Below, piece by piece: positions 3,670 to 57,826 of a stretch of 64,000 bases of DNA; positions within the stretch are counted from its first letter, which is position 1, and each line of letters begins with the position of its first letter. The position numbers and the translations under genes were made by a program. The notes under the pieces were generated by a model, which worked only from the letters and a program-made list of their open reading frames with translations, was not told the origin of the DNA and searched no databases. Origin of the DNA: Candidatus Zambryskibacteria bacterium RIFCSPLOWO2_02_FULL_51_21 (lineage in GTDB: Bacteria; Patescibacteriota; Minisyncoccia; Phycocordibacterales; Zambryskibacteraceae); NCBI GenBank assembly GCA_001824255.1, contig MHWQ01000002.1:393572-457571 (forward strand). Direction: 5' to 3'.

Positions 3670-5786
3670 ATCCTTACTTCAAAAAATTAACAGTTTTCCT
3701 TCTTGTACTTAGCTTTGTGTTCGGAGTGAGTGGAATCGTATCTTCTAAAAAAGCTTCCGCTATTAATACGGTTGAGCAGTGCATGGCGGAAATGCTCGCC
3801 GCGGCCAAACAAGCTGGAAAGAATATGACGGAAGATGAGGCTAGGGCAAATTGTCAGAAACTAATCGATGACGCCGTAAAACAAGCAGGCGGAGGAGGAT
3901 CTTTGTTTGATCTTCTCCAGCCCGCGGAATGGGTTGCTAAGGCCGCCGGGGCACTGGCTTCCGGAATACTGCTGCCCTTGGCCGGCTGGCTTACCTGGTT
4001 TAGCGGCATGCTCCTCAACTATGTAATCAAATACACAGTCGTGGACATGAAAGCCAACCTGGACGTTGATGCAGTAAATAATATATGGAAAACAATTCGT
4101 GACCTTGGCAACATGGGGTTCATCTTCGTTCTTCTCTACGCCGCTATTCAAACCATATTGGGTATTGGTAAAAATACTAAAGATTTGATTGTGCGAGTAG
4201 TGGTAGTAGCGATTTTAATAAACTTCAGCTTATTCTTTACGAAATTTGTCATAGACATTGCTAATGTCTTGGCCATTACTCTATATGACGCGGCCGCGCA
4301 CGGGGCATTGGCTGATAATCTCAATAGCGGCCTGGCTAATAGTCTTATGGAGCCGTTGGGGCTCCAATCGATTTGGAACGCCCAAGGAAGCTTAACCGGT
4401 TACACACTTCTCATAGCAGGCGTCATGGGCACGGTTGTGTCTCTTATAGCGGCATTCGTCTTCTTCGCCATCTCCATACTCTTCGTCATCAGATTCGTGG
4501 TTCTCCTCTTCGTACTGGCGCTTTCGCCAATCGCGTTCCTATCATTTGTCCTGCCGGAACTCAAGAAGTACCGCGACCAATGGTGGGGAGCGCTCTCCGG
4601 ACAAGCATTCTTCGCTCCGATTTATTTCCTGCTTACCTGGATTGTCATAGCCATCGCAAGAGGCATCCTAATGCCGCTTAGACCCGGCAGTATGGCAGAC
4701 GTTATCGCGGCGCAAGCGGGAAAGAGTGTGCCTGACCCGAGTTCGGTGGGAATCTTCGTGAACTACGCGATGGTCATAACTCTGCTGATTGCCTCTCTCG
4801 TCATCGCCAAGGAATGGGCCAACAAAGCCGGCGGCGGCATCAACAAACTCACAGGGTGGGCAACTGGCTTCGCCGGGGGAGCGACACTGGGGGCCGCTGG
4901 CAGATTTGGGAGAGGCACTGTGGGTAGAGCAGGTAGTTTATTAACTGAAAACGAGTGGCTTAAAGAAAAGGCGCCGACAAGCAGGATGGCTCGCCTGGCA
5001 CTTGCTACGGGCAAGAAGACTGCTGGGGCAAGCTTCGACCTGCGTGGAACCGGTTTGAGTTCTCAACTGGATGCCGGTAAGGCACAGAAAGGTGGATTTG
5101 CCGCAGATCTTAAGAAAAAAGTTGATACTGAAAAGAAATATGCGGATGAAACCTTCAAGCCATCGGAGTTAATGGTTGCTCAAGCGGAACGAGACCTTGG
5201 CCAAGCCAAAAAGACTGGCACGCCAGCGGACATAGCGGCAGCACAAGCAAAACTGGACAAAATCAATGGAGCCAGCGAAGATACGCTCCGTCAAAGAAAG
5301 ATTAAAGAACTCCGCGCCACAGGAAAGAGTAAAAAGGAGGCAAGAATTCTAGTGGATGAGCAAGAAGATAAATATTTGCAGGAAGTTAACAGACTTACTA
5401 CCAGCGGTATGGGTCAAGAGGACGCCGAGAAAGATGCCCAGAGCAGGGGCTTCGTAACTTTCAAAGCAATCGAGGGTCTGACTAATACCAGAAAAGGAGC
5501 TTACGCCAAGACTGTCGAGGAACAGAAGGTAAAGATACCATTCACACAAAAAGCTATTCCATTTGCTATCACCGGCCGACTCGGAATGTTTGGCCCCGTG
5601 AAGAAAGAAAACAAACTGGCTGCAAATGCCATTAGAAAAAGTATGAAAGAAAAGAAGCCTGGAGAAAAAATTGCAGAGGAGATAGAGAAGCAAGCCAGAG
5701 AATCAAGTGATGAGTCTGGGGCAACGCCCACACCCCCCACCACACCAACAACTCCTCCACCAGCCGCAGGCCCAACAACACCATGA
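3666..5786 (+). CDS. Polytopic inner-membrane protein (at least 6 TM helices) with a long K/E-rich coiled-coil C-terminal tail ending in a Pro/Thr-rich segment. VirB6/TrbL-like putative T4SS channel component.
   Basis: Signal or anchor MNPYFKKLTVFLLVLSFVFGVSG. Multiple long hydrophobic stretches, e.g. LLIAGVMGTVVSLIAAFVFFAISILFVIRFVVLLFVLALSPIAFLSFVL. C-terminal TPTPPTTPTTPPPAAGPTTP. Translationally coupled (ATGA) to both neighbours. Confidence 0.45.
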   Translation: MNPYFKKLTVFLLVLSFVFGVSGIVSSKKASAINTVEQCMAEMLAAAKQAGKNMTEDEARANCQKLIDDAVKQAGGGGSLFDLLQPAEWVAKAAGALASGILLPLAGWLTWFSGMLLNYVIKYTVVDMKANLDVDAVNNIWKTIRDLGNMGFIFVLLYAAIQTILGIGKNTKDLIVRVVVVAILINFSLFFTKFVIDIANVLAITLYDAAAHGALADNLNSGLANSLMEPLGLQSIWNAQGSLTGYTLLIAGVMGTVVSLIAAFVFFAISILFVIRFVVLLFVLALSPIAFLSFVLPELKKYRDQWWGALSGQAFFAPIYFLLTWIVIAIARGILMPLRPGSMADVIAAQAGKSVPDPSSVGIFVNYAMVITLLIASLVIAKEWANKAGGGINKLTGWATGFAGGATLGAAGRFGRGTVGRAGSLLTENEWLKEKAPTSRMARLALATGKKTAGASFDLRGTGLSSQLDAGKAQKGGFAADLKKKVDTEKKYADETFKPSELMVAQAERDLGQAKKTGTPADIAAAQAKLDKINGASEDTLRQRKIKELRATGKSKKEARILVDEQEDKYLQEVNRLTTSGMGQEDAEKDAQSRGFVTFKAIEGLTNTRKGAYAKTVEEQKVKIPFTQKAIPFAITGRLGMFGPVKKENKLAANAIRKSMKEKKPGEKIAEEIEKQARESSDESGATPTPPTTPTTPPPAAGPTTP

Positions 5787-6319
5787 ACGAGCAAGATAAA
5801 TTAATTCAAGAACAGTTCCAAAAGCTCCCGCTAGCGCTGCAGAAGGCGCTCGGAGAGATTCCGTGGAAATCTTTAGTCAATGAAATTGCGCGGCTGCACA
5901 ATTTGAAGCCGGAACAGGTGGAGAGCATCGAGACAGAGACGATGTTTATCCTCTACGGCTTCGAGAGTCCGGACGATTACGTCTCCAATATGGTCCGCGA
6001 AACTGGTATTGCCGAAGATTTGGCGTATGTCATCGCAAACGAAGTAAACGAGAAAATTTTCAAGCCTGTTTCTGTGAAAGTTGAGGAGGCAGGCAAACAA
6101 CAACCAACCTCAACTTCCATTCCCGAACTCAAACCAGAGAATCTGCCGATGGTTGAGAAAGGGGAGATGGTACATGAGGTGCCACACGTAGAAGCACCAA
6201 ATCCCAAATCACAAATTCCAAACAATATCGAAATTCCAAAAGAAGAAAAACCTCCTATCCAACCAGCTAAAAGCGCTTATGTGGGCAGCCAGGACCCTTA
6301 TAGAGAACCACTATCATGA
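5783..6319 (+). CDS. Hypothetical acidic soluble protein inside the T4SS-like operon.
   Basis: 178-aa ORF with ATGA overlaps on both sides. No TM segment. Glu/Asp-rich. Confidence 0.45.
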   Translation: MNEQDKLIQEQFQKLPLALQKALGEIPWKSLVNEIARLHNLKPEQVESIETETMFILYGFESPDDYVSNMVRETGIAEDLAYVIANEVNEKIFKPVSVKVEEAGKQQPTSTSIPELKPENLPMVEKGEMVHEVPHVEAPNPKSQIPNNIEIPKEEKPPIQPAKSAYVGSQDPYREPLS

Positions 6320-49608: not shown

Positions 49609-50014
49609 AAAAGCGGATCCAGAGGCCAAATTACCGGCTTACGCTCACTCAAACGATGCTGGAATGGATTTGTACTCTCTTGAGGAGGTCGAAGTGCCGC
49701 CTGGAGAATCCAGAAGAATCAGAAGCGGAGTGACTATGGAAATTCCTGAGGGTTATGTGGGTCTCTGCTGGGACAAAAGCGGGCTCTCGATGAATCATGG
49801 CATCAAAGTTCTGGCGGGGGTAATTGATTCCGGATTCAGAGGGGAATTGGTCATGGCGGTCATAAATCTTGGCAAAGAGGCATACACTTTCAAGAAAGGC
49901 GACAAGGTCATGCAGATGCTCATGCAGAAGGTAGAGCAAGTTGAAATTACTGAAGTAAATGAATTATCGGATAGCGCGAGAGGAGAAAAAGGTTTCGGCA
50001 GCACAGGAAAATGA
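49592..50014 (+). CDS. dut: dUTP diphosphatase.
   Basis: AYAHSNDAGMDLYS. GVIDSGFRGEL dUTPase motifs. Confidence 0.9.
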   Translation: MELRVKKADPEAKLPAYAHSNDAGMDLYSLEEVEVPPGESRRIRSGVTMEIPEGYVGLCWDKSGLSMNHGIKVLAGVIDSGFRGELVMAVINLGKEAYTFKKGDKVMQMLMQKVEQVEITEVNELSDSARGEKGFGSTGK

Positions 50015-51549
50015 TTAAAAAAGATATTGAAAAAATTCTCGGAAGGGAGATAAACTTGGTTCATCCCAAGGATTTTCGAAACGGCGATTATACCTTGATT
50101 GCCGATGAGAAGACGGCGCAAGAAGATTTCGAAAGGCTGGAGAATAATAAGCCGGAATGCATTTCAAAAATAGAATTCATCAAGCCGAGATTCATCAATA
50201 TCTATCTATCCAAAGAATTTTTCGCAGAAAGCCTGAAAGAGATTGTAGAAAAAGGCGAGAATTTTGGTCGAAGCGAACACGCCAGGGGATTCAAGGTGAT
50301 GGTTGAGCATACTCAGCCGAATCCTTTCAAGCAATTCCACATCGGCCACATGATGAACAATGCTATCGGCGAAGCGGTGGCAAGAATCATCAAATGGAAC
50401 GGCGCTGAGGTAAAGACGGCAAGTTACCATGGCGACATAGGCATGCATGTGGCCAAGGCGCTCTGGAAAGGGGATTATGCTCTGGGCTCAAAAGCTTTTG
50501 AAGAAGATGCGCAAGCCAAGGCTGAAATACAAGAGCTTAATAAAAAAATTTACGATAAATCAGATCCGGCACTAAACAAGAAATACGAAGAAGGCCGCAA
50601 GAAATCGCTTGAAGAATTTGGCCAGATTTATGAAAGATTAGGCAGTAAATTCGATTTTAATTTTTTCGAAAGCGAGGCTGCTCCTGTAGGCAAGGAGATT
50701 GTGCTTGAAAATATGCAAAACCTGCCTGCCGGTAGGCAGGTATTTGAAGAAAGCGAAGGAGCAACTGTCTTTAAGGGCGAGAAATACGGGCTTCACACCA
50801 GAGTTTTCCTCAATTCCGACAAAATTCCAACGTATGAAGCCAAGGAAGTTGGTTTGGCGAAAATTAAGAAGGAGAAATACGCCTTCGACCAATCAGTGAC
50901 AATTACGGCCAACGAACAAGATGCGTTTTTCTACGTCGTCGAGGCGGCCATAGGCGAAGTATTCCTGGAACTTAAGGGTAAGCTGAAGCACTTATCGCAC
51001 GGCATGCTGCGCCTGCCCTCCGGCAAAATGTCTTCGAGGACGGGAGATGTCATCACCGCCGAAGCTTTGATTGAGGAAGTTAAGACAAGAACCAAGGGCG
51101 ATGAGCAAGTGGCCATAGCCGCTATAAAATATATGATTCTTCGCCAGTCGATAGGCAATGACATCGTCTTCGATTTCGAAAAGTCCGTTTCGACCGAAGG
51201 AGATTCCGGAGTTTATCTCCAGTACGCGCATGCCAGAGCCAATTCAATACTCGAGAAGGCGGGCAGGAAGGGGAACGCGACAGGCGAAAGCGGAGAAACA
51301 AGAGAAATAGAAAGAATGCTTTATCGCTTCCCGGAAATTGTCGAGAGAGCGGGCAAGGAATACGCGCCGAACTATATTACTACATACCTTACCGAGCTTG
51401 CCTCGAGCTTCAACAACTTCTACGCGCACGAACAAGTTATCTCGGATGAGCCGGAGTCGGCCTACCGCCTGGCTATCGTCGAAGCTTTCTCAATCGTGAT
51501 GAAGAATGGTCTCAATATTCTTGGTATTGCGGCGCCTGAGAAGATGTAA
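50011..51549 (+). CDS. argS: Arginyl-tRNA synthetase (short form lacking the N-terminal Add domain).
   Basis: HIGH motif PFKQFHIGHMMN. ArgRS anticodon-binding signature GVYLQYAHARANSILEK. Confidence 0.85.
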   Translation: MIKKDIEKILGREINLVHPKDFRNGDYTLIADEKTAQEDFERLENNKPECISKIEFIKPRFINIYLSKEFFAESLKEIVEKGENFGRSEHARGFKVMVEHTQPNPFKQFHIGHMMNNAIGEAVARIIKWNGAEVKTASYHGDIGMHVAKALWKGDYALGSKAFEEDAQAKAEIQELNKKIYDKSDPALNKKYEEGRKKSLEEFGQIYERLGSKFDFNFFESEAAPVGKEIVLENMQNLPAGRQVFEESEGATVFKGEKYGLHTRVFLNSDKIPTYEAKEVGLAKIKKEKYAFDQSVTITANEQDAFFYVVEAAIGEVFLELKGKLKHLSHGMLRLPSGKMSSRTGDVITAEALIEEVKTRTKGDEQVAIAAIKYMILRQSIGNDIVFDFEKSVSTEGDSGVYLQYAHARANSILEKAGRKGNATGESGETREIERMLYRFPEIVERAGKEYAPNYITTYLTELASSFNNFYAHEQVISDEPESAYRLAIVEAFSIVMKNGLNILGIAAPEKM

Positions 51550-51590: not shown

Positions 51591-52148
51591 GTGATATTCA
51601 TCATTTCCGGCCCGTCCGGAGTGGGTAAAACGAGCATTGACAACGCGCTCCAGGTTCTGAGGCCCTCCTTTCACCGCCCGGTCTCATGCACCACGCGCTC
51701 CCGCAAAAGAGGTGAAGTCAATGGCAAGGACTATCACTTCTTGTCGAGAGACAACTTCGTGCAGATGATAGAGAAGGGTCTCTTCGCCGAGTATGCCGAG
51801 GTGTATGGCAACTTCTACGGCACACTCGGAATTGACCTCATGTTGAGAGGCTGTGATGCCGTCATCGTTCTGGTGATTGACGTGCAAGGCATGAGACAGG
51901 TCAAAGCCAAACACAAGAACGTCGTCTCAATCTTCATCCTACCCCCCACCTTTGAGGCGCTTGAGGCCCGCATCCGCGAACGCAGCAGAGAAGAGACGGA
52001 AGAAGAGATTGCCACGTGGCTCGAAACCGCCCGGCAAGAACTCTCTTGCGCCAGCGAGTACAGTCATCAGATTGTGAACGACGATTTGATGACCACCGTG
52101 CGGGCTATCCTTGATGTTCTCGACGGGAAGGATTCTATCGCTTTGTGA
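51591..52148 (+). CDS. gmk: Guanylate kinase.
   Basis: P-loop ISGPSGVGKTS. CTTRSRKRGEVNGKDYHFLSRDNF. Confidence 0.9.
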   Translation: MIFIISGPSGVGKTSIDNALQVLRPSFHRPVSCTTRSRKRGEVNGKDYHFLSRDNFVQMIEKGLFAEYAEVYGNFYGTLGIDLMLRGCDAVIVLVIDVQGMRQVKAKHKNVVSIFILPPTFEALEARIRERSREETEEEIATWLETARQELSCASEYSHQIVNDDLMTTVRAILDVLDGKDSIAL

Positions 52149-52230: not shown

Positions 52231-55200
52231 ATGACTGGAAAGTCCGACAGAGCCAAGAAGGAGGAGGAAATCCTCAAATTCTGGCAAGACAACAAGATTT
52301 TCGAAAAAAGCCTGGAGAAAGACGCTCCGAAAGGCGAATTCGTGTTCTACGACGGACCGCCCTTCGCCACAGGCCTGCCTCATTACGGGCATATTCTTCC
52401 CGGCACCATCAAGGACGTTATCCCGCGCTACAAGACCATGAGGGGCTTCCGAGTGCCGCGTCGCTGGGGCTGGGATTGCCATGGTTTGCCCATAGAGAAT
52501 CTGGTCGAGAAGGAGCTTGGCCTTGAAACAAAGAAGGATATAGAGAAATTCGGCATTGCTGAATTCAACGAGCGGGCCAAGGCGAGCGTCTTGCGCTACG
52601 AGAGCGAATGGAAAGAGATTATACCGCGCACCGGACGATGGATAGATATGGACAACCCGTACAAGTCGATGGATGCGAGCTACACGCAGTCAGTCTGGTG
52701 GTCCTTCAAGAATCTTTTCGACAAAGGGCTTATTTACCAAGGGTTTAAGTCCATGCACCTTTGCCCACGCTGCGAGACCACACTCTCGAATTTCGAGGTG
52801 AATCAGGGCTACAAAGATATTACCGATATTTCCGTCACCGTAGAGTTTCCGCTCATCGATGAACCGAACAAATTCATTCTCGCCTGGACCACCACACCCT
52901 GGACTTTACCGGGCAACGCCGCCTTGGCGATAAATCCGGAGCTCCAATATGTAGAGACGGAAGGGGAAGTGCCGGGCCATATCTATATCGTTGCGAAATC
53001 GAGAGTCGAAAAAGTTTTTGGCGGCAAATATAAGATTTTGCGCGAATTCTCCGGCAAGGAATTGATTGGAAAGAAATATAAAACACTTTTTGATTATTAC
53101 CAGACCGAGGGCCTGGTATATGGGGCCGAGTTTGTCCAGGCGGAAGAGGGAACCGGCATAGTGCATATCGCTCCGGCATTCGGCGAGGAAGACTACGAGC
53201 TCTCGCTCAAGGAGAAAATTCCCTTCATCCAGCACATCGGCACCGATGGCCGCTTCAAGCCGGAGGTGAGAGATTTTGCCGGTGAGCCGGTCAAGCCCAA
53301 GGATGACCACCAGCGCACGGATATTCTCATCATCAAGCACCTGGCCGCGAAAGGGCTCCTATTCTCGAAAGAAAAAATTATTCACAGCTACCCGCATTGC
53401 TGGCGATGCGATACGCCCCTTTTGAACTACGCTTCCTCCTCGTGGTTTGTGAAGGTAGCCGATATCAAGGATAAACTTGTCGCCAATAATCAAAAGGTTA
53501 AGTGGGTGCCGGAAGATATACGCGACGGGCGCTTCGGCAAGTGGCTCGAGGGCGCGCGTGACTGGGCTATTTCGCGCTCGCGCTTCTGGGGGACGACCTT
53601 GCCCGTCTGGCAGACTGCCGACGAAAAGAAGGAAATTGTCATAGATTCTGTCGAGACTCTTAAGAAGCACGCGAAAAAATCCGGCAACAGGTATTTTCTC
53701 ATGCGGCACGCAGAAGCAATCGACAATGCCAAGCACGTGCTCGACCCAAAGGGTGATCCGAATAATCACCTAACCGAAAAAGGCAGGGAAGAGGCTCTTG
53801 CCTCGGCCCGGGAACTCAAGGGGAGAAAAATAGACGCAATCATCACGTCGCCCTTCCTCCGCACGCGCGAGACAGCGGAGATAGTCAGGAAGGAACTCGG
53901 CTTTCCTGAAGGTTCTGTCGTCGTGGATGACCGTTTGCACGAATACAACGAGCCGGACGTGGATTTTGTGCGCCGCCGCGCGGGGGAATTTATCTTCGAA
54001 ACGGAAAAGCGCTACGCCGGCAAGAATATTCTTATCCTTTCTCACGGCAATCCGTTGTGGGTTTTGGAGAAAATCGTCTCGCACCAGCCAAGCAATGATT
54101 TTTCGAGCAAGGTAATTATGAATACTGCGGAAGTCAGAGAGTTGGAATTTGTTCCGTTCCCTCACAACAAAAACTTCGAGCTAGACCTGCATAGGCCGTA
54201 TATAGATGAAATCGTGCTGGAAAAAGACGGGGAAGAATACCGCCGCGTGCCGGAGGTGTTCGATACCTGGTATGACTCGGGCTCGGTGCCCTTCGCCTCG
54301 CGCGCGGCTTTTGATTCCCGGCCTGCCGACTTTATCGCCGAAGGGCTGGACCAGACTCGCGGCTGGTTCTACACCATGGCCGTTCTTGGCACGGCTCTGT
54401 TCAACGAGATACCATATCGGCAGGTGGTGGTAAACGGCCTGGTCCTCGCCGAAGACGGCAAGAAGATGTCCAAACGGCTCAAGAATTATCCGGAGCTTAC
54501 CGATGTTCTCGATAAATACGGCGCCGATGCCTTGCGCTATTACCTCATGTCTTCGCAGGCGGTACGCGCTGAGGACATTGCCTTTTCTGAGAAGAGTTTG
54601 GATGAAGTAATGAAGAAAAACATTTCCCGTCTCGAAAATGTCGTGGGGTTCTATGAACTTTATGCCAAAGAGAGTGCACCTCTTCAAGATTTACCCCAAC
54701 ACATACTGGATAAATGGATTGATTTGAAACTTAATAATCTGGTTAGAAGCATTACGGACGGTCTTGAAAGATACGAGATAGACCGCGCTAGCCGCCCCAT
54801 CGCCGATTTTATCGATGACCTTTCCACCTGGTACCTGCGGCGTTCCCGCACTCGTCCCGAAGCGCTTCCAAAACTTAGGGAAATACTGATTGAGTTTTCG
54901 AAACTCATGGCCCCCTTCATGCCGTTTATGGCTGAGGATATTTATCAGAGACTCAAGGCGGACGGCGGGAAAGAAAGCGTCCATCTTGAGGCTTGGCCTA
55001 TCCCTCCTCCTGCCAAGGGGGAGAAGGAGGGGGTCTTGGATAATATGTCAGAAACCAGAAGAATCGTGACGCTCGCGCTTGAAGCGCGGCAGAAGGCCAA
55101 TATCAAGGTGAGGCAACCTCTGGCGAGGCTCGAGATAAGAACCGACGCGCTTTCTCCGGAATATCTCGAAATAATAAAAGATGAATTGAATGTGAAAAAA

Positions 55201-55437
55201 GTTGAAATCAATAATGCCCTTGAGAGCGACGTGCTTCTCGATACCAATCTCACGCCGGAACTTATAGAAGAGGGGAAGGTGCGCGATGCTATCCGCGTGG
55301 TTCAGGATTGGCGCAAAGAAAAGGGATTAAAACCGGGGGAAAAAGCAACTTACCCGACAGATGACGAATCTATCCTAAAGCACAAAGAAGAAATAGAGAA
55401 AGCCACAAACGTTGAGTTATCACATTTACACAACTAA
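52231..55437 (+). CDS. ileS: Isoleucyl-tRNA synthetase carrying an in-frame histidine-phosphatase (PGAM-like) domain insertion.
   Basis: HIGH motif PPFATGLPHYGHIL. Editing-domain marker WTTTPWTLPGN. KMSKS motif KMSKRL. Insert residues NRYFLMRHAEA...SPFLRTRETAEIV...ILILSHGNPL located between the WAISRSRFWG and DLHRPYID/DTWYDSGS core segments. Confidence 0.95.
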   Translation: MTGKSDRAKKEEEILKFWQDNKIFEKSLEKDAPKGEFVFYDGPPFATGLPHYGHILPGTIKDVIPRYKTMRGFRVPRRWGWDCHGLPIENLVEKELGLETKKDIEKFGIAEFNERAKASVLRYESEWKEIIPRTGRWIDMDNPYKSMDASYTQSVWWSFKNLFDKGLIYQGFKSMHLCPRCETTLSNFEVNQGYKDITDISVTVEFPLIDEPNKFILAWTTTPWTLPGNAALAINPELQYVETEGEVPGHIYIVAKSRVEKVFGGKYKILREFSGKELIGKKYKTLFDYYQTEGLVYGAEFVQAEEGTGIVHIAPAFGEEDYELSLKEKIPFIQHIGTDGRFKPEVRDFAGEPVKPKDDHQRTDILIIKHLAAKGLLFSKEKIIHSYPHCWRCDTPLLNYASSSWFVKVADIKDKLVANNQKVKWVPEDIRDGRFGKWLEGARDWAISRSRFWGTTLPVWQTADEKKEIVIDSVETLKKHAKKSGNRYFLMRHAEAIDNAKHVLDPKGDPNNHLTEKGREEALASARELKGRKIDAIITSPFLRTRETAEIVRKELGFPEGSVVVDDRLHEYNEPDVDFVRRRAGEFIFETEKRYAGKNILILSHGNPLWVLEKIVSHQPSNDFSSKVIMNTAEVRELEFVPFPHNKNFELDLHRPYIDEIVLEKDGEEYRRVPEVFDTWYDSGSVPFASRAAFDSRPADFIAEGLDQTRGWFYTMAVLGTALFNEIPYRQVVVNGLVLAEDGKKMSKRLKNYPELTDVLDKYGADALRYYLMSSQAVRAEDIAFSEKSLDEVMKKNISRLENVVGFYELYAKESAPLQDLPQHILDKWIDLKLNNLVRSITDGLERYEIDRASRPIADFIDDLSTWYLRRSRTRPEALPKLREILIEFSKLMAPFMPFMAEDIYQRLKADGGKESVHLEAWPIPPPAKGEKEGVLDNMSETRRIVTLALEARQKANIKVRQPLARLEIRTDALSPEYLEIIKDELNVKKVEINNALESDVLLDTNLTPELIEEGKVRDAIRVVQDWRKEKGLKPGEKATYPTDDESILKHKEEIEKATNVELSHLHN

Positions 55438-55876
55438 AGGAATTATCCTCTCGGCGCAGGCGAAAGGGGAGGCTGACCGGCTTTACTCCATTCTCACCAG
55501 AGATTTCGGACTCATACGGGCGCACGCTATTGGCGTGAGGAAGAGCGCTTCGAAACTCCGCGGAGCGCTCGAGCCGGTGTCTCTCTCGAGCGTTTCTCTC
55601 GTCCGCGGCAAGGAATACTGGCGACTGACTTCGGCCGAAGTTATAAAGAGGTTTAAGAAATCAAAGCCGCTTTTCCTCCTCGAACAGCTTGTTGCCGGCG
55701 AAGCAACGCATCCCGAGCTCTTCGATGCGGTAGAAAAATATTTAGAATTAGACGAAACAACCCTAGTCGCGCAAATTCTCTTCCACCTCGGCTATCTCAA
55801 GAAGTCCGACCTCAATTTACCTGAAAAAGAGCTGATTAAAGCGATTAACGCCGGCCTTGAAGCCAGCATGTTATAA
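55412..55876 (+). CDS. recO: RecO-like protein (N-terminal OB-fold domain only, 154 aa).
   Basis: GIILSAQAKGEADRLYSILTRDFGLIRAHAIGVRKSASKLRGALEPVSLSSVSLVRGKEYWRLTSAEVI matches the RecO_N domain pattern. Confidence 0.55.
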   Translation: MSYHIYTTKGIILSAQAKGEADRLYSILTRDFGLIRAHAIGVRKSASKLRGALEPVSLSSVSLVRGKEYWRLTSAEVIKRFKKSKPLFLLEQLVAGEATHPELFDAVEKYLELDETTLVAQILFHLGYLKKSDLNLPEKELIKAINAGLEASML

Positions 55877-55888
55877 TAAAAGGTCGGT

Positions 55889-57826
55889 TTGTCCGTCAAA
55901 ATCTCTATGGATGAAGAAAATCAGGGAAAAGTGGAAAAGCTCGACGAGGCGCTCTACTCGCGCACCCGCTACCACGACCCTCTGGGGAAGCGCTCTCCCG
56001 TGCGGCAAGAAGAATCACCCGAAGTGAGAGAGAAGTGGCAATCGCCCGAACTCAATGAACTCCTGACCCATGAGCGCGAAGCGCCGCAAATCAATCCCAT
56101 GATGAAGAAATTCTTCGCTTTCGCCCTTTTCTTCTTCCTGGCGACCATTATCGTCGCGGGGGTAATATTCCTCGGCGGGTCAAATTTCATCTCCTCGAAA
56201 AATGTTGATATAGAAATACTCGGCCCCGCGAATGTCTCCGCCGGCGAAACCCTCGAGCTTGGGGTAACCGTCAAGAACGGCAACAACACCGACCTCGAAC
56301 TCGCCAATCTCTCCGTCCAGTATCCAACGGGAGCGAGAGAGGCGGCGGATACTTCGAAAAGCATCACCTTCACTAAGAAGGAACTTGGCGTAATCAAGGC
56401 GGGAGACGAAGCCGCGGAAAACGTGCGCATGGTGCTTATCGGCACCGTGGGAGAGGTCAAGGAAATCAAATTCTCGGTCGAGTACAAGGTCAAGGGTTCA
56501 AACGCCACCTTCTACAAAGACAAGGTCTATGAAGTATCCATTGGCAGCGCGCCGATGACTCTCAAGGTTCTAAGCCCGGCTTCCATAACATCCGGCGACA
56601 CCTTCACCACGAAAGTTACTCTCAAGCTCGGCTCGGCCGAGACGCTCAAGAACGTGATGTTACGCGCGGAGTATCCTTACGGCTATAGTGTCTCATCCGC
56701 GTCGCCGGCCGCCGCGTATGAGAACAATGTCTGGTCGCTCGGTGATTTCTCCCCGGGCACGGAGAAGACGGTCGAAATCAAAGGCAGGCTGGTCGGGGAG
56801 AATCAAGACGAGAGAACCTTCCGCTTCTATGCCGGTGTCTCGGATAACGGCAGCATTACTCCTAATTTTAAATCAGTTCTCGTCGCGACGCTTGAGACTG
56901 TCGCCATCGAGCGTCCGTCCATCGCTCTGGTGGCAAGCTTCAACGGCGAAGTGTCTCAGACTTACGTGGCGCCGGCGGGAAAGGAGATTTCCTCTTCCGT
57001 TCGCTATCAGAACAATCTGCCGGAAAAGCTAGTAAATCCGCGCCTCGAAGTGGTTTTCTCCGGCGTGGCGCTTGATAAGGCTTCTGTCCGGCCACAACAG
57101 GGCGGTTTCTATGATTCCGGGAAGAATTCTATTGTCTGGAATATTTTAAACTCCGCCGGCGGTTCGGAGCTTCTGCCGGGCCAGGCGGGCACGGTTAATT
57201 TCTCTTTCTCATCCTTGCCGGAAAACACCCTGCCCTCCGGCAGCCGGGAGATAACGTTGAAGATGTCTCTCGGCGGGACGCCGCCCGGCGGCCAGGCCAT
57301 ATCGGTCACGGAATCAAGCTTCGTGAAAATCGCTTCGCAAGTAACGCTTGCTTCTAGAGTTCTTTATTCCACAGGGCCTTTCAATAACAGCGGCCCCATA
57401 CCGCCGAAAGTTGAAACAAAAACGACTTATACCGTCGTCTGGAACGCGGGCAATACCAGAAATGACGTCACCGATGCCAAGGTGACAGCCAAACTCGGTC
57501 CGGGAGTAACCTGGCTTGCTTCACACAGCGTCTTGAGCGAGCCGATATCGTACGACAGCGGTTCGAACACCGTTACCTGGGACTTGGGCAACCTCTCCGC
57601 CGGTTCCGGCTTCTCGACTTCGGGCAGGGAAGTCGCCTTCCAGGTGGCTCTCACACCCTCGCTTTCTCAGCTGGGCACGGCGCCGACCCTCGTGACGGGG
57701 GCGGTCTTCTCGGGCCGCGAAACCGATAGCGGCAACGTGATATCGGTCGTCAACCAGCCGCTTACCACGCGGATGCCGTATGACCCTACATTTATCCAGG
57801 GAGATGATATAGTGGTGAAGAAATGA
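55889..57826 (+). CDS. Large single-pass membrane protein with an extracytoplasmic beta-rich (DUF11/CARDB-like) domain.
   Basis: Cytoplasmic 70-aa head, TM FFAFALFFFLATIIVAGVIFLGG, then about 560 aa of Thr/Ser/Val-rich repeats. Confidence 0.45.
   Translation: MSVKISMDEENQGKVEKLDEALYSRTRYHDPLGKRSPVRQEESPEVREKWQSPELNELLTHEREAPQINPMMKKFFAFALFFFLATIIVAGVIFLGGSNFISSKNVDIEILGPANVSAGETLELGVTVKNGNNTDLELANLSVQYPTGAREAADTSKSITFTKKELGVIKAGDEAAENVRMVLIGTVGEVKEIKFSVEYKVKGSNATFYKDKVYEVSIGSAPMTLKVLSPASITSGDTFTTKVTLKLGSAETLKNVMLRAEYPYGYSVSSASPAAAYENNVWSLGDFSPGTEKTVEIKGRLVGENQDERTFRFYAGVSDNGSITPNFKSVLVATLETVAIERPSIALVASFNGEVSQTYVAPAGKEISSSVRYQNNLPEKLVNPRLEVVFSGVALDKASVRPQQGGFYDSGKNSIVWNILNSAGGSELLPGQAGTVNFSFSSLPENTLPSGSREITLKMSLGGTPPGGQAISVTESSFVKIASQVTLASRVLYSTGPFNNSGPIPPKVETKTTYTVVWNAGNTRNDVTDAKVTAKLGPGVTWLASHSVLSEPISYDSGSNTVTWDLGNLSAGSGFSTSGREVAFQVALTPSLSQLGTAPTLVTGAVFSGRETDSGNVISVVNQPLTTRMPYDPTFIQGDDIVVKK

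Follow-up and report, generated by a model that had tools for sequence, protein, structure and literature searches.

A histidine-phosphatase domain inserted in the CP3 subdomain of isoleucyl-tRNA synthetase in Paceibacteria-type Patescibacteria

Few enzymes are as conserved or as well studied as the aminoacyl-tRNA synthetases; accessory domains in them are a known theme, and time and again extra domains have brought new biology to light, for instance editing, signalling and the assembly of complexes. A 64,000-nucleotide stretch of the genome of Candidatus Zambryskibacteria bacterium RIFCSPLOWO2_02_FULL_51_21 (contig MHWQ01000002.1, positions 393,572 to 457,571; the whole stretch is called the window below, and coordinates are counted from its first nucleotide) carries an ileS gene whose product, an isoleucyl-tRNA synthetase (IleRS), has a histidine-phosphatase domain inserted in a surface loop. 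What is a phosphatase doing inside a tRNA synthetase: is the domain genuine and likely to be active, how widely and for how long has it been kept there, and on what might it act? The host gene and its landmarks, all on the forward (+) strand, are as follows.

52231-55437, +: ileS, stop codon included, encoding a 1068-residue type-2 (eukaryote-like) IleRS with an inserted domain (from its open reading frame, TIGR00392 and Pfam)
52381-52392, +: HIGH signature HYGH, residues 51-54; H51, G53 and H54 invariant in 56 relatives
52888-53193, +: CP1 editing-domain signature region, with TTTPWTLP at about residues 220-227, GTGIVH at residues 307-312, and D321
54463-54477, +: KMSKR signature loop, residues 745-749, including Ser747; K745 and K748 invariant in 56 relatives
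54709-55125, +: anticodon-binding domain, residues 827-965 (PF08264, E=1.7e-28)

The gene is a single unbroken open reading frame (ORF), and an earlier sequence-only reading of the stretch, which had described the frame as continuous with its HIGH, editing and KMSKS motifs intact, was borne out at each motif. The whole protein scores 850.7 bits against TIGR00392, the NCBIfam equivalog model for isoleucine--tRNA ligase (cutoff 621.4), and the next-best synthetase model, valS, reaches 417.6 bits, under its own cutoff of 612.1. Pfam recognises tRNA-synt_1, Anticodon_1 and DUF5915 as well as His_Phos_1 (PF00300), and the best sequence matches in the PDB are the Candida, human and yeast IleRSs. The protein thus has the HIGH and KMSKS signatures, the CP1 editing motifs (T220, T221, W224, G307, G309, V311, H312 and D321 are invariant in the 56 relatives) and the anticodon-binding domain of an IleRS; the loop around KMSKR (residues 737-751) has a pLDDT below 50 in the full-length AlphaFold2 (AF2) model, i.e., it is flexible. 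The host protein is, by predicted function, a bona fide type-2 IleRS, and the 64-kb window has no second IleRS-like gene. The mupirocin-resistant enzymes MupA (NF000257) and MupB (NF000258) were considered and rejected, with 684 and 702 bits against a cutoff of 1900, a general type-2 similarity only. Since the identical ileS protein recurs on 18 independent contigs (e.g., GCA_001823795.1 and GCA_001824075.1, from Rifle groundwater metagenomes), an assembly artefact is excluded.

The inserted domain and its functional residues are laid out as follows.

53680-54183, +: inserted branch-1 histidine-phosphatase domain, residues 484-651 (168 residues), cap-less short form
53704-53709, +: catalytic R492-H493 (the RH of the RHG-type motif, here RHA), invariant in 116/116 insert-bearing relatives
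53725-53727, +: N499, phosphate-pocket Asn (RHxxxxxN), nearly invariant
53860-53862, +: R544, second catalytic Arg (in SPFLRTRETA), invariant in 116/116
53941-53943, +: E571, predicted proton donor (in RLHE), Glu in 115/116 and Asp in 1/116
53944-53973, +: site of a cap deletion of about 34 residues, at about residues 572-581, after the catalytic Glu (from alignment with relatives)
54043-54045, +: H605, second catalytic His (SHG motif), invariant in 116/116
54154-54183, +: return linker PFPHNKNFEL (family consensus PLPHNxxYEL), which rejoins CP3; P and N nearly invariant

The sequence-only reading had placed a histidine-phosphatase block within the ileS frame, and all of the motifs that it quoted are where it had put them: LMRHAEA starts at residue 490 (nucleotide 53698), SPFLRTRETA at 540 and ILILSHGNPL at 600, with RLHEYN at 568. 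PF00300 matches the whole protein at 78.9 bits (E=5.1e-22) and, in the profile search which that reading had proposed, the excised segment at 84.9 bits (E=7e-24), well above the cutoff of 21.7 bits. The tRNA-synt_1 profile halts at its position 273 before the domain and restarts at 274 after it, and structure prediction and fold searches give the insert a phosphoglycerate-mutase-type alpha/beta fold. Its profile match, its catalytic residues and its fold all place the domain in the branch-1 histidine-phosphatase superfamily.

H493 is the predicted phospho-acceptor, according to the established chemistry of the superfamily. The same reading had allowed that the domain might be catalytically dead, with RHAE in place of RHGE, and this is unlikely: Ala follows the catalytic His in only 3 of 116 relatives (Gly in the other 113) and exchanges one small residue for another, and R492, H493, R544 and H605 never vary. 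The full R-H-N-R-E-H signature is complete in 134 of the 171 histidine-phosphatase domains from a profile search of sequence representatives; the remainder are mostly truncated fragments or conservative variants, and about two lack the acidic proton donor. Mean pairwise identity is 42% for the insert and 63% for the IleRS core.

The cap region of histidine phosphatases usually shapes substrate specificity and restricts access to small substrates. In the window it is nearly gone, so that residues 84-124 of PhoE have only about seven counterparts; a long form of about 200 residues is found in 78 of the 116 relatives, and the 168-residue short form of the window appears to be a recent derivative of this capped, PhoE-like long form. 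The return linker is a feature of the embedded domains: standalone phosphatases of the clade do not have it and match only positions 2-189 of the 201-position profile. No curated NCBIfam subfamily cutoff was reached by the insert, those for dPGM, SixA, CobC and PspA included. Membership of dPGM was rejected (NF038349, 56-60 bits against 225; TIGR01258, 21.8 against 81.7; about 34 cap residues deleted), as was that of SixA (TIGR00249, 36.8-40.3 bits against 74.5). The defence models of PADLOC-DB gave no match to the insert; one standalone relative (P0303) had a single marginal PADLOC match to a Cas4-like nuclease model (E=4.6e-4), which is probably spurious, and in PHROGs the insert matched only a generic histidine-phosphatase family of unknown function. 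No other histidine-phosphatase gene is present in the 64-kb window.

Where exactly does the domain enter the synthetase? The segments on either side of it are these.

53563-53592, +: CP2-CP3 linker motif WAISRSRFWG, residues 445-454
53593-53679, +: N-terminal half of CP3, residues 455-483, TTLPVWQTADEKKEIVIDSVETLKKHAKK; zinc-knuckle cysteines lost
54184-54285, +: C-terminal half of CP3 (DLHRPYIDEIVLEKDGEEYRRVPEVF) and the DTWYDSGS strand that opens the second Rossmann half; colinear with Candida 6LDK

The position between the WAISRSRFWG and DTWYDSGS segments (the latter from residue 678) is as had been described, and it lies in the CP3 subdomain, which starts directly after the CP2-3 linker. 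When the insert is deleted in silico, the flanks run colinear with IleRS structures of the eukaryote type (Candida 6LDK, E=1e-58), and the insertion point on 6LDK is the loop between '...ELRELSGR' and 'DIHRESID', inside CP3, which spans residues 473-534 of the Candida enzyme and 459-526 of the yeast one (PMC7191050, PMC7955072). The claim that other IleRSs have only a short linker here holds for the nearest insert-less relatives (P0154, P0161, P0162, P0164 and P0165; 73-78% identity over aligned parts), which bridge '...ETLKKYSKT' to 'LDLHRPYID...' by 9-10 residues where the window has 168; it does not hold for IleRSs in general, since the CP3 loop of yeast-type enzymes has about 60 residues (PMC7191050, PMC7955072). 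In the AF2 model the N-terminal half of CP3 forms strands at 459-461 and 468-470 and a helix at 474-480. More distant insert-bearing relatives retain cysteines flanking the insert (VWxCxxC ... CxC), and because these relatives hold CxxC...CxC on both sides, the domain can be placed in the loop of the CP3 zinc knuckle. CP3 topology and zinc content differ among IleRSs (PMC7191050), and in human IARS1 this subdomain is surface-exposed, poorly conserved and serves for protein docking (PMC13439101). In yeast IleRS the homologous ARDWNVSRNRYWG segment (the CP2-3 linker) lines the pocket for the 3'-CCA terminus of the tRNA (PMC7955072). The insertion point is clean in the alignment, the segment is not an ordinary IleRS sub-domain with coincidental motifs, and the view that this is a domain insertion rather than a fusion artefact is upheld by the Pfam and NCBIfam scores, the with/without-insert alignment, the fold searches, the independent assemblies and the hundreds of species that share it.

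The survey of related genomes that had been suggested as a further check shows that the insertion is not unique to this genome: confirmed loci occur in at least 448 species (scan of one genome per species), a lower bound, as two peptide patterns were used. The locus scan was built on an 8-sequence insert alignment and is biased toward embedded forms that share the peptide SGNKYFVM or the PLPHN linker. In 80/80 sampled loci the phosphatase lies inside a long IleRS ORF (about 1,130-1,220 residues on complete contigs, a few being cut by contig ends), and PF00300 is found in 115 of the 120 best full-length relatives (54-74% identity), the closest of which is 74% identical to the window protein. 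The record names are Patescibacteria, Paceibacterota, Parcubacteria, Nomura-, Campbell-, Wolfe-, Vogel-, Zambryski- and Niyogibacteria and RAAC4_OD1_1, with a few odd labels. When 1.84 billion representatives were searched with a profile, 559 matches fell below 1e-30; the best 150 of these comprise 105 IleRS-embedded domains, 2 embedded in valyl-tRNA synthetases (ValRSs), 39 histidine-phosphatase-only proteins and 4 ambiguous fragments. Four proteins taken from PF00300-only matches as standalone phosphatases (P0051, P0031, P0067 and P0071) proved to be fragments of insert-bearing IleRSs and were discarded as such. The insertion is a lineage-wide trait of Paceibacteria-type Patescibacteria, in which nearly all carriers are found. 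In a few cases (L039, L073 and P0022) an insert-bearing ileS sits in a bin labelled Spirochaetia, Rectinemataceae or Berkelbacteria, and many others are in bins labelled 'uncultured Candidatus Saccharibacteria'; all of these labels may reflect mis-binning or generic names rather than a true spread beyond Paceibacteria.

The tie between phosphatase and synthetase is not confined to the embedded form. In the window, ileS follows two syntenic genes:

50011-51549, +: argS
51591-52148, +: gmk

Six single-domain, standalone relatives of the insert (P0303, P0322, P0340, P0316, P0347 and P0381; 189-195 residues) all have argS on one side and the next downstream gene on the other, with a gap to the latter of -10 to +10 nucleotides. 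This downstream gene is a complete, insert-less ileS in four of the six, and an N-terminal IleRS fragment cut by the contig end in the other two. The order at the standalone loci, argS, phosphatase, ileS and, further on, recO, matches that of argS, gmk, phosphatase-bearing ileS and recO in the window. The four partner IleRSs that were compared are 36-50% identical to the window core, and two of them have an intact Cys-knuckle CP3. Other IleRSs carry two or three copies of the domain, distributed over three sites: CP3, where they sometimes stand in tandem; the stretch from DxWxxSG to KMSKS; and the stretch from KMSKS to the anticodon-binding domain. Two ValRS-type proteins also bear it, P0356 (1538 residues, with the ValRS C-terminal arm) in two copies and P0241 in four; one copy of the former and three of the latter lie between CISRQIWWG and DTWFSS, the site homologous to IleRS CP3, and another copy lies between the CP core and CP2. 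The catalytic signature is kept in every complete copy of the multi-copy IleRS-type proteins, and the ValRS-type copies show two deviations (N to A in copy 3 of P0241, E to A in copy 1 of P0356). The 6/6 operon adjacency, the three IleRS sites, the ValRS CP3 site and the 105/150 embedded representatives together suggest that the coupling of this phosphatase to IleRS is non-random.

One IleRS-like protein, P0321, stands apart: it has an IS200-type Y1 transposase domain at residues 340-461 in the editing region, the histidine phosphatase in CP3 and a GNAT acetyltransferase domain C-terminal to the phosphatase, and it has no KMSKS. This may be a chimera, a split gene or a further IleRS rich in insertions.

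The partnership is old and vertically inherited in Paceibacteria-type Patescibacteria, to judge from the divergence of the copies and of insert and core. In three tandem-bearing IleRSs the first copies share 47-56% identity with one another, as compared to 21-25% between first and second copy inside the same tandem protein, and distances of insert and core show a modest correlation (Pearson r=0.39, Mantel p~0.001, Spearman rho=0.08). The operon, multi-site, ValRS, conserved-signature and old-copy results combined argue against a chance fusion and against a recently mobile element. In a neighbor-joining tree of the IleRS core only, insert-less relatives take about three positions in a clade with almost all outgroups long-form, and short-form domains are scattered over several places; because this tree carries no support values, the number of losses (about three) is only indicative. 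The parsimonious reading of the direction is from long to short to none, and the domain is an accessory one that was apparently trimmed (with loss of the cap, as in the window) or deleted repeatedly in the window's clade.

Two of the insert-less loci, L011 (3023-3691) and L012 (1623-2291 and 5111-5701), have a CYTH-domain gene, and L012 also has a gene for a YfbR-like HD 5'-nucleotidase; these genes sit in a dTMP-synthesis cluster upstream of argS. The window locus has neither a CYTH nor a YfbR-like gene, and has dCMP deaminase, HIT and dUTPase genes instead.

How does this arrangement compare with known systems? The nearest structural relatives of the domain, PhoE/YhfR of Geobacillus stearothermophilus (1H2E/1EBB), HFP (9MMH), PspA (4IJ5) and CobC (6E4B), are free-standing enzymes of about 200 residues that act on small metabolites, whereas the window domain lacks some 34 residues of the PhoE cap (84-124) and sits inside an aminoacyl-tRNA synthetase; SixA (1UJB/1UJC) is less similar to it in structure than are the PhoE-type enzymes. 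Minus the insert, the host is colinear with the type-2 IleRSs of Candida albicans (6LDK), yeast (7D5C), human (9W01) and Thermus (1ILE) and shares with them HIGH, KMSKR, the editing motifs, the anticodon-binding domain and the C-terminal DUF5915, yet none of the described IleRSs has a whole enzyme domain in CP3, where the window has a 168-residue phosphatase in place of a loop of about 10 residues. Histidine phosphatases joined to other enzymes include mycobacterial MutT1/Rv2985 (with a Nudix domain; 9CXX, 3FJY) and the RNase H/acid phosphatase of the Rv2228c type (NF005567), both of which are end-to-end fusions to a non-synthetase partner rather than loop insertions; the likeness is one of analogy and not of membership, because the scores are far under the family cutoff (50 against 326 bits). 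The curated precedent for an additional catalytic domain in this synthetase is ileS_w_GNAT (NF040702), an IleRS with an appended GNAT acetyltransferase, which differs from the window protein in both the domain and its position (314 bits against a cutoff of 1999); P0321 unites phosphatase and GNAT in one IleRS-like protein. NCBIfam has a model for the GNAT-bearing form and none for the phosphatase-bearing form, and NCBI names the latter only 'class I tRNA ligase family protein', some of these proteins being called 'histidine phosphatase family protein'. In the literature on IleRS, tRNA synthetases and histidine phosphatases, we found no paper that describes a class Ia synthetase with a histidine phosphatase inside it. 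This agrees with the earlier reading, which was not aware of a described phosphatase insertion in these enzymes, although Pfam annotations computed in advance for public proteins already show the architecture.

What, then, might the domain do? The conservation and placement described above argue that it is very probably a real, catalytically competent and functionally coupled domain. It would be an active phosphohydrolase working through a phospho-His493 intermediate and, being held on or beside the synthetase, would act on a phosphorylated ligand handled by the catalytic domain; the repeated placement of the phosphatase around the second Rossmann half may reflect selection for acting on such a ligand. 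A ligand of the catalytic site is plausible because CP3 starts at the CP2-3 linker that lines the CCA pocket (PMC7955072). Taken as a whole, the best explanation that we can offer is a tethered phosphatase that acts on a phosphorylated ligand of the catalytic domain, with an adenosine-ribose phosphate as the leading choice; we propose it tentatively, at somewhat less than an even chance, and would place a similarly guarded bet on an adenosine-phosphate-type substrate as a class. A candidate would be the 2'/3'-phosphorylated or pyrophosphorylated A76 of tRNA(Ile), which the phosphatase would restore to a chargeable 3' end, and an alternative candidate would be an adenine-nucleotide by-product or inhibitor; that the tRNA 3' end specifically is the substrate seems rather unlikely. 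The suggestions of the sequence-only reading, that the phosphatase would sit next to the aminoacylation site and could act on tRNA ends, pyrophosphate or aminoacyl-adenylate, are speculative. Toxins of the toxSAS type pyrophosphorylate the tRNA 3'-CCA and so block charging (10.1101/2021.04.30.441581, PMC11559606), and the published IleRS-tRNA structures show only editing or intermediate states (PMC11685878). It is possible, if doubtful, that the domain is a built-in repair or immunity device that reverses inactivating phosphorylation aimed at the charging of Ile (and Val); in a joint reading that deserves the same caution, such a device could target either a toxSAS-like A76 3'-(pyro)phosphate on tRNA(Ile) or a HipA/HipT-like phosphate on the KMSKS serine.

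Several points weigh against a tethered phosphatase with a ligand of the catalytic domain. The closest folds to the insert in the fold searches are PhoE, HFP, PspA and CobC, all small-molecule phosphatases; the literature yielded no precedent for a histidine phosphatase in RNA-end repair; and a repair limited to tRNA(Ile) or tRNA(Val) helps only against a toxin of that specificity. CP3 may simply be a permissive insertion site. Two of the insert-less relatives, P0154 and P0162, share the synteny of the window and have no histidine-phosphatase gene within 8 kb. Lastly, this clade of phosphatases also proliferates outside synthetases, as seen at locus L095, where positions 4001-5862 hold a free-standing tandem di-phosphatase (404 residues) followed by a third phosphatase gene (216 residues), an array present on 17 contigs; these genes adjoin those for RNase HII, DsbB and DCD and are unlinked to ileS.

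The phosphatase might instead be directed at its own host protein, removing an inactivating phosphate from IleRS, most likely from Ser747 (KMS747KR), after an attack like that of HipA or HipT. HipA phosphorylates GltX at S239 (KLSKR), HipT phosphorylates TrpS at S197 (KMSKS), and other HipA kinases target GltX, TrpS and LysS (PMC6581861, PMC7029023), so that class I synthetases are indeed inactivated at the equivalent signature-loop serine. This would account naturally for the tethering in cis and the specificity for IleRS; of the three insertion sites in IleRS, two lie immediately beside KMSKS, a patchy and repeatedly lost distribution is typical of conflict systems, the cap-less form of the window would have an open, SixA-like active site, and the superfamily includes the protein phosphatases SixA, PGAM5 and Sts-2. 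However, no IleRS-directed kinase is known (and no search for one was made in these genomes), the SixA cutoff is missed (36.8-40.3 against 74.5 bits), the fold is nearer to that of small-molecule phosphatases, the cap is retained in most relatives and no PADLOC defence model matches the insert, and we consider this self-directed activity unlikely on balance. At much the same low level we place an uncoupled, PhoE-like housekeeping phosphatase for small molecules, an operon neighbor of ileS that was captured into permissive loops and gained nothing from it except co-expression, with no part in aminoacylation. The nearest folds are those of broad-specificity metabolite phosphatases, CP3 is variable and tolerant (PMC7191050, PMC13439101), the first and last beta-strands of the predicted domain (E4-9 and E152-155) would fit an insertion through closely spaced termini, free-standing arrays do occur and close relatives dispense with the domain altogether. 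Set against these are the repeated, independent placements (at least three sites in IleRS and at least two in ValRS), which argue for selection on proximity, the presence of up to 3-4 anciently diverged copies that nearly all have their catalytic residues, the operon adjacency seen in all six standalone cases, whose IleRSs share only 36-50% identity with that of the window, and the 105 of 150 best representatives of the clade that are embedded in IleRS.

A non-catalytic module, i.e., a pseudo-enzyme kept for structure, dimerisation or the docking of tRNA or protein, would explain the RHA in place of RHG. Many histidine phosphatases dimerise, and tandem copies could pair within one molecule. 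CP3 is a docking surface in human IARS1 (PMC13439101). Yet the catalytic residues are invariant or nearly so in an insert that averages only 42% identity (against 63% for the core), RHA occurs in just 3 of 116 relatives and swaps one small residue for another, and only about 2 of 171 domains lack the proton donor, all of which makes such a module very improbable. The remaining explanation, a selfish in-frame mobile element (intein-like or other) or an artefact of assembly or annotation, is largely refuted and the least probable of all. The multi-site, multi-copy occurrence in essential genes, the apparently precise absences in close relatives and the 'HN' in the C-terminal linker would suit a mobile element, but the tandem copies are ancient and have position-specific orthologues, the insert co-diverges with the core, and no phage or defence family is linked to it other than the generic PHROG of unknown function; as to an artefact, the identical protein comes from 18 contigs of independent assemblies. 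An intein was rejected outright, as the fold is that of a histidine phosphatase and not HINT, and the residue after 'PHN' is K, E or D (followed by xx[FY]EL), with no Cys, Ser or Thr nucleophile.

If we return to the tethered phosphatase acting near the catalytic domain, the wider meaning lies in a second, apparently active center of a different enzyme class that is kept inside IleRS across hundreds of species. Its retention in an ultra-small, genome-reduced lineage, one that sheds most 'non-essential' genes, points to an unrecognised chemical step linked to the charging of Ile and Val, which could be dephosphorylation of a tRNA end or of the enzyme, or a nucleotide clean-up. Nature provides controls, in that separate-gene, one-copy, multi-copy, cap-less and deleted versions all exist. 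Should the repair or immunity reading be true, this would be the first known case of an aminoacyl-tRNA synthetase equipped with its own toxin antidote, and it would imply undiscovered toxins directed at IleRS or tRNA(Ile) in Patescibacteria or in their hosts or phages.

The neighborhood of ileS has some features of its own. The argS product (50011-51549; 512 residues) matches only tRNA-synt_1d and DALR_1, its N-terminal Arg_tRNA_synt_N domain being apparently missing; the arginyl-tRNA synthetases of related loci have 514-577 residues and do include Arg_tRNA_synt_N. The recO-like ORF at 55412-55876 starts with TTG, overlaps the last 26 nucleotides of ileS and encodes 154 residues with RecO_N only and no RecO_C (the RecO proteins of relatives have 156-243 residues). 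It is followed by an ORF at 55889-57826 for a 645-residue protein that begins with a hydrophobic N-terminal segment and has no more than a faint CLIPPER match; most of the longer syntenic loci keep this ORF directly after recO. Elsewhere in the window, seven tRNA genes lie between 28164 and 40395, and because the 3' CCA is encoded in only three of the seven (Ser-tga, Val-tac and Leu-gag), the organism needs a CCA-adding enzyme to complete the others.

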